From: Escherichia coli
Lineage (GTDB): Bacteria; Pseudomonadota; Gammaproteobacteria; Enterobacterales; Enterobacteriaceae
Direction: 5' to 3' (one strand)
DNA: 440 nucleotides
Assembly (NCBI RefSeq): GCF_003334385.1
Contig: NZ_QOWN01000181.1
The position numbers and the translations under genes were made by a program. Shown here piece by piece: positions 1 to 440 of the stretch; positions within the stretch are counted from its first letter, which is position 1; each line of letters starts with the position of its first letter. A model generated the notes under the pieces. That model made no database searches. It saw nothing but the letters and a program-made list of their open reading frames with translations, and had not been told where the DNA came from.

Positions 1-440
1 GCCGTGGTGTGGACGCCCGTCAGCCTTCCCGTGTCGCTGTAACGGTACTCCCGGCTCTCCTGCGGGCCGCTGATGCGGATTAGCTGTCCGTTGTCGTTCC
101 AGTCGTAGTCACGGTCAAGCTGCGGAAGGTTCAGGTGCCTGCTCCGGAGCTGGCCGCTGGTATTCCAGGCGGTGGCAAGTTCATATGCCTCCCCGCCGAA
201 GCTGCGGGCCGTCTCACGGTGCAGCCTGTCCCGCGTGTACTCGACCAGCGGTGTTCCGCCCAGCTTCATCCCCGCAAGATAACCGCTGCCATACGTCAGC
301 CACTCCACCGGCGGCAGACCGTCCGGCTCCTGACGGGTCGCCAGCCCCTGTTCGCTGTACGCATGCCCCGTCTCATGCTCCCACAGCATCTCCCCCGTCT
401 CCGGGTTCTCCACCGTCTGCCGTTCGCCCGTCAGGCGGCC
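1..440 (-). CDS. rhs: Rhs family protein, internal fragment of the conserved YD-repeat core (partial at both ends; N-terminus toward higher coordinates, C-terminus toward lower coordinates)
   Basis: Seen in sequence: the minus-strand frame starting at base 440 is open for 146 codons (bases 3-440 in frame, bases 1-2 a partial codon), and all five other frames contain stops. Third-position GC is about 83% (121 of 146 codons end in G or C). The translation contains YD-repeat motifs (EYRYSDTGRLTGV, DRDYDWNDNGQLIRIS, GRLTGE) and the block VEWLTYGSGYLAGMKLGGTPLVEYTRDRLHRET, which I recognise from memory as part of the E. coli Rhs core. The family call is established knowledge plus recall, not a database search. 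Which paralogue (rhsA, B, C, D or another) cannot be decided from this fragment. Confidence 0.92.

Follow-up and report, generated by a model that had tools for sequence, protein, structure and literature searches.

A length-variable loop in the Rhs cocoon wall of Escherichia coli and its probable place in a short recombined tract

Rhs cores and the toxin cocoon

The core genes of the E. coli rhs elements were grouped into the subfamilies rhsABCF, rhsDE and rhsGH, the last of which was adopted after Hill and co-workers (PMC2935791), and both the existence of divergent subfamilies and the mosaicism and recombination of rhs cores were already established in that work, which also described the cores as G+C-rich. 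The rhs locus extending from dnaQ to fadE was designated position 1 (Jackson et al. 2009, PMC2935791). At the protein level, the Rhs cocoon was reported to encapsulate the autoproteolytically released C-terminal toxin (PMC8765631). Solved cocoons comprise those of P. aeruginosa Tse5 (8cp6), P. protegens RhsA (7q97), A. baumannii Tse15 (8uxt) and the Advenella VgrG-Rhs protein (8qja).

Here, a stretch of 440 nt of E. coli DNA (the window) was compared with these systems, for which a preliminary description had proposed a possible short deletion, relative to the K-12 cores, in the segment following the conserved RDRLHRET block. Taken as a whole, the segment is probably to be read as carrying a length-variable loop of the cocoon wall, whose allele lies within a short, recombined mosaic tract. 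The features of the window are collected in Table 1.

Table 1. Features of the 440-nt window, with strand and basis of assignment
Feature	Position	Strand	Basis and remarks
ORF fragment of E. coli RHS element core gene	1..440	-	146 codons, no stop
Mosaic patch of high divergence, ~64 nt	145..208	-	Comparison with alleles L007 and L008
Flagged segment RSFGGEAYELATAWNTSGQL	147..206	-	Exact peptide mapping to the window
Turn NTSGQ of the YD-type repeat WNTSGQL	150..164	-	Model
Beta-strand YELATAW	165..185	-	Alignment and model; ends in W, in most Rhs proteins Y
GGEA codons, four-residue non-strand link between the strands ETARSF and YELATAW	186..197	-	Alignments and model
Conserved RDRLHRET block	210..233	-	53 aligned Rhs proteins and model

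The host gene and its nearest relatives

Frame 1 of the minus strand is open over the entire window, and no alternative coding frame was found in it, as the ORFs in its remaining frames are 36 aa long at most. The GC content of the window (66.6%, GC3 83%) is consistent with the G+C richness described for rhs cores (PMC2935791). Its DNA is 100% identical to genes annotated as 'RHS element core protein' in many complete E. coli genomes, and 1,356 database records were found to match it at 95% identity or more (550 at 99% or more, 806 at 95-99%); the exact sequence is hence already known and annotated in hundreds of genomes. In E. coli NCTC86, the window corresponds to residues 761-906 of the 1410-aa Rhs protein WP_066008979.1. 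With 2487.6 bits against the NCBIfam equivalog profile NF041261 (RHS_core), this host protein exceeds the curated cutoff (2000 bits), which refers to the whole protein and is out of reach for a fragment. The 146-aa fragment alone was aligned to profile positions 756-905 with 263.6 bits, whereby the profile spends 150 positions on the 146 residues and is therefore net 4 positions longer. Tandem YD repeats were identified in six stretches of the host protein (TIGR01643), and three YD-type motifs (WNTSGQL, WNDNGQL and YSDTGRL) locate to the window itself. The Rhs-associated core domain (TIGR03696, host residues 1180-1257) and the PxxxxDPxGL motif at the core end (PIRYTDPLGL, host residue 1248) both lie outside the window. 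On all criteria tested, the fragment is that of an RHS element core protein.

The NCTC86 gene is part of the order Hcp-VgrG-Rhs-small ORF, which adjoins a type VI secretion cluster and has yafV-ivy-fadE downstream of it, so that the locus corresponds to position 1. The gene linkage of a T6SS-delivered PAAR-Rhs effector is seen at position 1 (Hcp-VgrG-Rhs-small ORF) as well as at position 6 (VgrG-Rhs). Judged by this gene context, the window gene would be a T6SS-linked Rhs effector of the PAAR type, the delivery of which is predicted.

The core nearest to that of the window is of the RhsH type, which precedes the annotated 'dsORF-h1' and shares 89.9% DNA identity with the window over 440 nt. 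The reference cores for RhsG and RhsH are reportedly those of Wang, Zhao and Hill (1998). Going by its nearest core, which is the one followed by 'dsORF-h1', and by its locus, which is position 1, the window core probably belongs to the rhsGH subfamily; it falls outside rhsABCF (DNA identity 73-75%, loop of 13 residues against 15 in the window) and outside rhsDE (DNA identity ~78%, loop of 20 residues against 15). The RhsH-type core and the window have near-identical flanks, the segment start ARSFGG and the downstream sequence RHLNLPQLD in common, but the RhsH-type loop (GGAGSTAG) is 4 residues longer and the strand and turn following it read YEQATAYTLTGQL as compared to YELATAWNTSGQL in the window. 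K-12 RhsD and RhsE share the core architecture, ~78% of the DNA, ~72% of the protein sequence over the fragment and the AYEL anchor, but possess the loop GSMAGSNAA, which exceeds that of the window by 5 residues (15 nt). K-12 RhsA, RhsB and RhsC likewise share the core architecture (69-73% protein identity over the fragment), and their YELTTA resembles the YELATA of the window, yet they carry the two-residue turn GR, so that here the window is 2 residues (6 nt) longer.

Length of the loop in K-12 and in the Rhs family

The position of the flagged segment directly after the RDRLHRET block, as given in the preliminary description, was confirmed. The residues R, D, L, H, R and E of this block vary little, if at all, among the 53 aligned Rhs proteins, and in the structural model the block runs from the last part of one strand through a turn into the following strand. 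A Ser/Gly/Ala-rich insert between RSFG and AYEL had been ascribed to the RhsA-type cores of K-12, which holds true for RhsD and RhsE (RSFG-SMAGSNA-AYEL or -AYKL) but not for RhsA, RhsB and RhsC (RSFG-R-YEL). The belief that RhsA-type cores are the longer ones turned out to be the reverse of what the alignments document, and the shorter loop ascribed to the window is shorter with respect to RhsD/E (by 5 aa) and the RhsH type (by 4 aa) but not with respect to RhsA/B/C. When the fragment was compared by BLASTP with the five K-12 Rhs proteins, every alignment was gapped, with none running gap-free to a reference core, and the gaps were of opposite sign (-5 for the window against RhsD/E, +2 against RhsA/B/C); at the DNA level, these differences are in frame (-15 nt against rhsD/E, +6 nt against rhsA/B/C). 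The direction of the length difference depends on the reference chosen. The 15-nt gap against RhsD/E stood, but its description as a deletion was not established; what had been noted is a trivial polymorphism in loop length, correctly described but assigned in part to the wrong cores. The site of this polymorphism reads GGEA in the window, GR in RhsA/B/C, GGAGSTAG in the RhsH type and GSMAGSNAA in RhsD/E.

To place the window among more distant relatives, loop length was counted in a 53-sequence alignment as the number of residues from the E of HRE to the aromatic residue of the next YD-type motif, whereby distant homologues were taken from a representative-library search (<50% identity, n=33). 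Thirteen residues were found in 18 of the 33 distant Rhs proteins, including those of Serratia and Buttiauxella, 14 residues in 9, and 18-22 residues in the remaining 6. RhsA/B/C have 13 residues, the window 15, the Salmonella enterica relatives 17 or 19, the RhsH-type cores followed by the annotated 'dsORF-h1' 19, and RhsD/E 20. With respect to the ground state of 13-14 residues, to which 27 of the 33 distant proteins belong by alignment count, the window loop is longer by 2. A further search with the 146-aa fragment yielded mostly fragmentary E. coli entries and served as a catalogue of loop variants, not as a guide to the direction of change. Among these fragmentary entries, 13-residue forms were found in Enterobacter, Citrobacter, Lelliottia and Salmonella, next to a second 15-residue allele of E. 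coli (RSFG-NNA-YEL, GNNA). The GNNA allele (L013, 1-675) sits in an RhsD/E-like background, its cluster (P0018) counts 400 member sequences, and it likewise is not obtainable from rhsD by a simple 15-nt deletion. The length of the connection is poorly constrained in the Rhs family, ranging from 2 residues in RhsA/B/C up to ~9 in RhsD/E, and the window represents one of at least five length alleles of the loop in E. coli.

Structure of the loop region

An AlphaFold2 model was computed for host residues 621-1000 with the 53-sequence alignment as input. The model (mean pLDDT 89) consists entirely of beta-hairpins, and its elements follow each other as strand ETARSF, loop GGEA, strand YELATAW, turn NTSGQ and strand LRSRHL. 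The local pLDDT minimum was found in the 10-residue block containing the loop (84 as compared to 90-94 in its neighbourhood). Foldseek identified solved T6SS Rhs cocoons as top matches, i.e., Tse5 (8cp6), 8qja, Tse15 (8uxt, TMq 0.80) and RhsA (7q97), next to which the BC components of Tc toxins (TcB-TcC) and teneurins were retrieved, so that the all-beta model matches Rhs, Tc and teneurin shells as is characteristic of the Rhs/YD beta-cocoon fold. In detail, the model of the window gene superposes on the solved Rhs cocoons with E-values of 1e-21 to 5e-24 and TMq of 0.71-0.80, and the WLxYGxGH…RDxLHRE motif aligns between them, but sequence identity is 23-28% and the length of the loop after the HRE strand differs in each. 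According to the model, the indel would alter the length of the link that joins two antiparallel strands in the cocoon wall; RhsA/B/C possess a tight two-residue turn at this site and RhsD/E a loop of about nine residues.

As a side observation, the W92 codon at window positions 165-167 (AWNTSGQL) locates to the aromatic column of the YD-type motif, in which the 53-sequence alignment has Y in 42 and W in 4 sequences; the next repeat of the window (DWNDNGQL) likewise carries W-N.

A mosaic patch around the loop

Two alleles from other strains (L007 and L008), which occupy the same locus (position 1) and are near-identical to the window over the 440-nt region except around the loop, were used for comparison. 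L007, which carries a form longer by 15 nt, differs from the window by 26 substitutions, 22 of which lie inside positions 145-208 and 4 in the remaining 376 nt (~1%). For L008, which carries a form longer by 12 nt, 18 of the 32 substitutions fall within window positions 153-192. The patch of ~64 nt diverges by 34-45% from alleles which are nearly identical to the window elsewhere. When the whole gene was considered, L006, which is of the window type, and L008 showed no difference for more than 1 kb in each direction, the toxin end included, except for a few blocks, and the densest block of differences in the central core is the one that comprises the flagged segment. Between L006 (9721-13953) and L008 (4730-8965), difference blocks were located at CDS nt 91-900, 2071-2250 and 2521-2685. 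Because several discrete blocks separate these two genes, mosaicism is not confined to the flagged patch.

Substitution rates were estimated according to Nei and Gojobori for the 30-codon patch and its flanks, which were compared by Fisher test. Against L007, L008 and RhsH, dS was 0.49-0.60 in the patch and 0.095-0.20 in the flanks, so that the patch exceeds its flanks about fivefold (p=0.001 for L008, p=0.02 for RhsH) and about equals the dS towards rhsD (0.64). Since synonymous divergence within the patch lies far above that of the flanks, the allele was reasoned to be an old, recombined one and not the result of a recent deletion. The history of the patch thus appears to be deeper than that of its surroundings, and the pattern of substitutions would be the signature of short-tract recombination between rhs cores. 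The ratio dN/dS amounts to 0.3-0.7 in the patch and 0.14-0.22 in the flanks, i.e., it is raised two- to threefold, which is compatible with relaxed constraint and leaves room for selection.

The same patch alleles were identified at more than one locus. The window-type patch is also present at position 6 (yncGH-VgrG-Rhs-pptA) in strain W619, and the RhsH-type patch was seen at positions 1 and 6. Strain 300709 has two rhs copies in tandem, 7 kb apart, of which one is truncated and carries GGAGSTAG and the other carries GGEA and is 100% identical to the window. Both the occurrence of the same patch alleles at two loci and the tandem arrangement of different alleles agree with short-tract recombination. 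Since alleles of the same locus with near-identical flanks carry the forms longer by 15 and 12 nt, and since the window form is present at two different loci, loop length is not diagnostic of lineage. The divergent core lineage suggested in the preliminary description is borne out by the DNA identities of the window (~78% to rhsD/E, 75% to rhsA/B and 73% to rhsC), which set it apart from all K-12 copies.

Some further details of these loci were noted. The upstream copy of E. coli 300709 (L014, 5076-7379), which is truncated at its N-terminus, is followed by an element of the ISAs1 family (ISEc1) and by dsORF-h1, and the downstream copy with the GGEA loop (L014, 9958-13952) is frameshifted; decay is also evident in the T6SS genes of the strain, among which tssJ and tagH are partial and an IS1 element has inserted. 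In E. coli 2013C-3250, position 1 (L011, 4733-9437) holds an RhsE-like core and then ydcD, which in K-12 is the gene downstream of the rhsE pseudogene; a core-plus-downstream module located at position 6 in K-12 is here found at the T6SS locus.

Origin of the 15-residue form

One account of the gap would be that a long-loop core of the RhsD/E or RhsH type recently lost 4-5 codons in a simple in-frame deletion, for which speak that the closest relatives by overall identity all have 19-20 residues, that the …EA-YEL of the window resembles the C-terminal end of longer loops (…NAA-YEL, …TEA-YEQ) and that the RHS_core profile is longer over the fragment. This account is nevertheless improbable, as none of the sampled long alleles becomes the window sequence when 12 or 15 nt are taken out of it, 18-22 further substitutions being left around the gap in 40-64 nt (34-45%) against ~1% in the flanks, and as the patch is too divergent from every long allele sampled at synonymous sites too, where its distance to RhsH, L007 and L008 is as high as that to rhsD. 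Moreover, slippage at the GCGGG direct repeat, the copies of which are 12 nt apart in the RhsH allele, would lead to GGAGYEQ and not to GGEAYEL. If, on the other hand, the 13-residue ground state is taken as the starting point, an independent insertion of 2 residues, unrelated to the long loops of RhsD/E/H, would suffice; 13-14 residues are indeed found in 27 of 33 distant Rhs proteins and in RhsA/B/C, and the YELATA of the window is near to the YELTTA of RhsA, with partial similarity also of the DNA (ACCACCGC as compared to GCCACCGC). Outside the patch, however, the window sides with the long-loop cores (80-96% as compared to 72-75% for RhsA/B/C), and the EA-YE motif is shared with the 17-residue Salmonella forms, so that an insertion of this kind was considered unlikely.

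A functional reading would regard the loop as an adaptive hot spot, i.e., as a surface loop of the cocoon which is under diversifying selection by a partner, a chaperone or recognition and whose cassettes are kept and shuffled. The presence of five or more length alleles at appreciable frequency in E. coli, the two- to threefold raised dN/dS of the patch and its being the densest difference block between otherwise identical genes would fit such a scenario. Yet dN/dS stays below 1, synonymous divergence is raised as well, which points to age and recombination and not to amino-acid selection, other mosaic blocks exist in the same genes, and loop length varies across distant Rhs families as is expected of an unconstrained loop; adaptive diversification is hence regarded as very unlikely. 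The same low probability is assigned to the more specific proposal that the ~64-nt patch, which comprises the loop and the strand and turn after it, is a specificity cassette on the cocoon surface, maintained by balancing or diversifying selection for an interaction partner and moved from one rhs locus to another by gene conversion. An artefact of sequencing or assembly is refuted, since 1,375 of 5,426 complete E. coli genomes, which come from many laboratories, contain the exact patch, in frame and inside intact genes of 1,402-1,411 aa.

The favoured reading of a length-variable loop in a recombined tract assumes that the segment contributes a single strand-loop-strand-turn unit to the wall of the YD-repeat beta-cocoon in a PAAR-type Rhs effector, whereby the residues seemingly missing would belong to the GGEA connection between two antiparallel strands. 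The tract of ~64 nt would have arisen by gene conversion, in which short tracts recombine between rhs cores that are paralogous or in tandem, and, as the substitution pattern suggests, recombination rather than point mutation would have made the patch. The variation of the loop may be functionally near-neutral, in that the cocoon presumably still closes and still carries its toxin. The residues EA-YE next to the downstream strand recur in the 17-residue loops of Salmonella (GAGTEA-YEQ, GSGAEA-YEQ), and the long-loop cores are the group nearest to the window outside the patch, with 80-96% protein identity as compared to 72-75% for RhsA/B/C; taken together, these two observations mildly favour an old trimming of a longer loop, and the 15-residue form may thus more likely have been trimmed from a loop of 17-20 residues than have gained 2 residues anew. 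Slippage between short direct repeats of the RhsH and RhsD alleles was also considered, but the predicted products (GGAGYEQ and GNAAYEL, respectively) both differ from the window.

That a loop joining two strands of a repeat shell differs in length is to be expected and matters little. Loop length offers a convenient way to type rhs core alleles (classes of 13, 15, 19 and 20 residues), but lineage should not be deduced from it, because the patch appears to recombine between cores and between loci. What the present comparison adds is solely that the flagged interval coincides with a small patch of apparently recombinant origin.

Distribution of the loop alleles in E. coli

To determine the frequencies of the loop forms, 5,426 complete E. 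coli genomes were queried with short sequences of the patch. The RhsA/B/C form was found in 3,849 genomes (11,297 places), the RhsD/E form in 3,246 (6,382 places), the window form in 1,375 (~25%; 1,850 places) and, counted by genomes, the RhsH form in 1,284. By copy number, the commonest form in E. coli is thus the shortest one, that of RhsA/B/C. Carriers of the window form include O157:H7 strains.

A donor of the GEA patch was sought in a set of representative genomes, one for each bacterial species, which was scanned for DNA that encodes FGGEAYELATAWN; none was found outside E. coli, and the sole match was a contig labelled as belonging to a Collinsella sp. MAG that is 99.96% identical to E. 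coli. This contig (L012, JAIJJM010000460.1, 1-2619; 'MAG: Collinsella sp. isolate Map_57_008') shows its 99.96% identity over its entire 2,619 nt to the NCTC86 rhs locus and, judged from this identity, almost certainly derives from E. coli and was mis-binned into the MAG of an actinobacterium. Because the species-representative scan yielded nothing but this mis-binned contig, the allele would seem to be restricted to E. coli. In E. coli 504237 (L016, 4506-8738), a subvariant of this allele was noted that has C instead of Y at the start of the strand (RSFGGEACELATAWNTSGQLQS); its class has a patch identity of 92.3% and is present in ~170 genomes.
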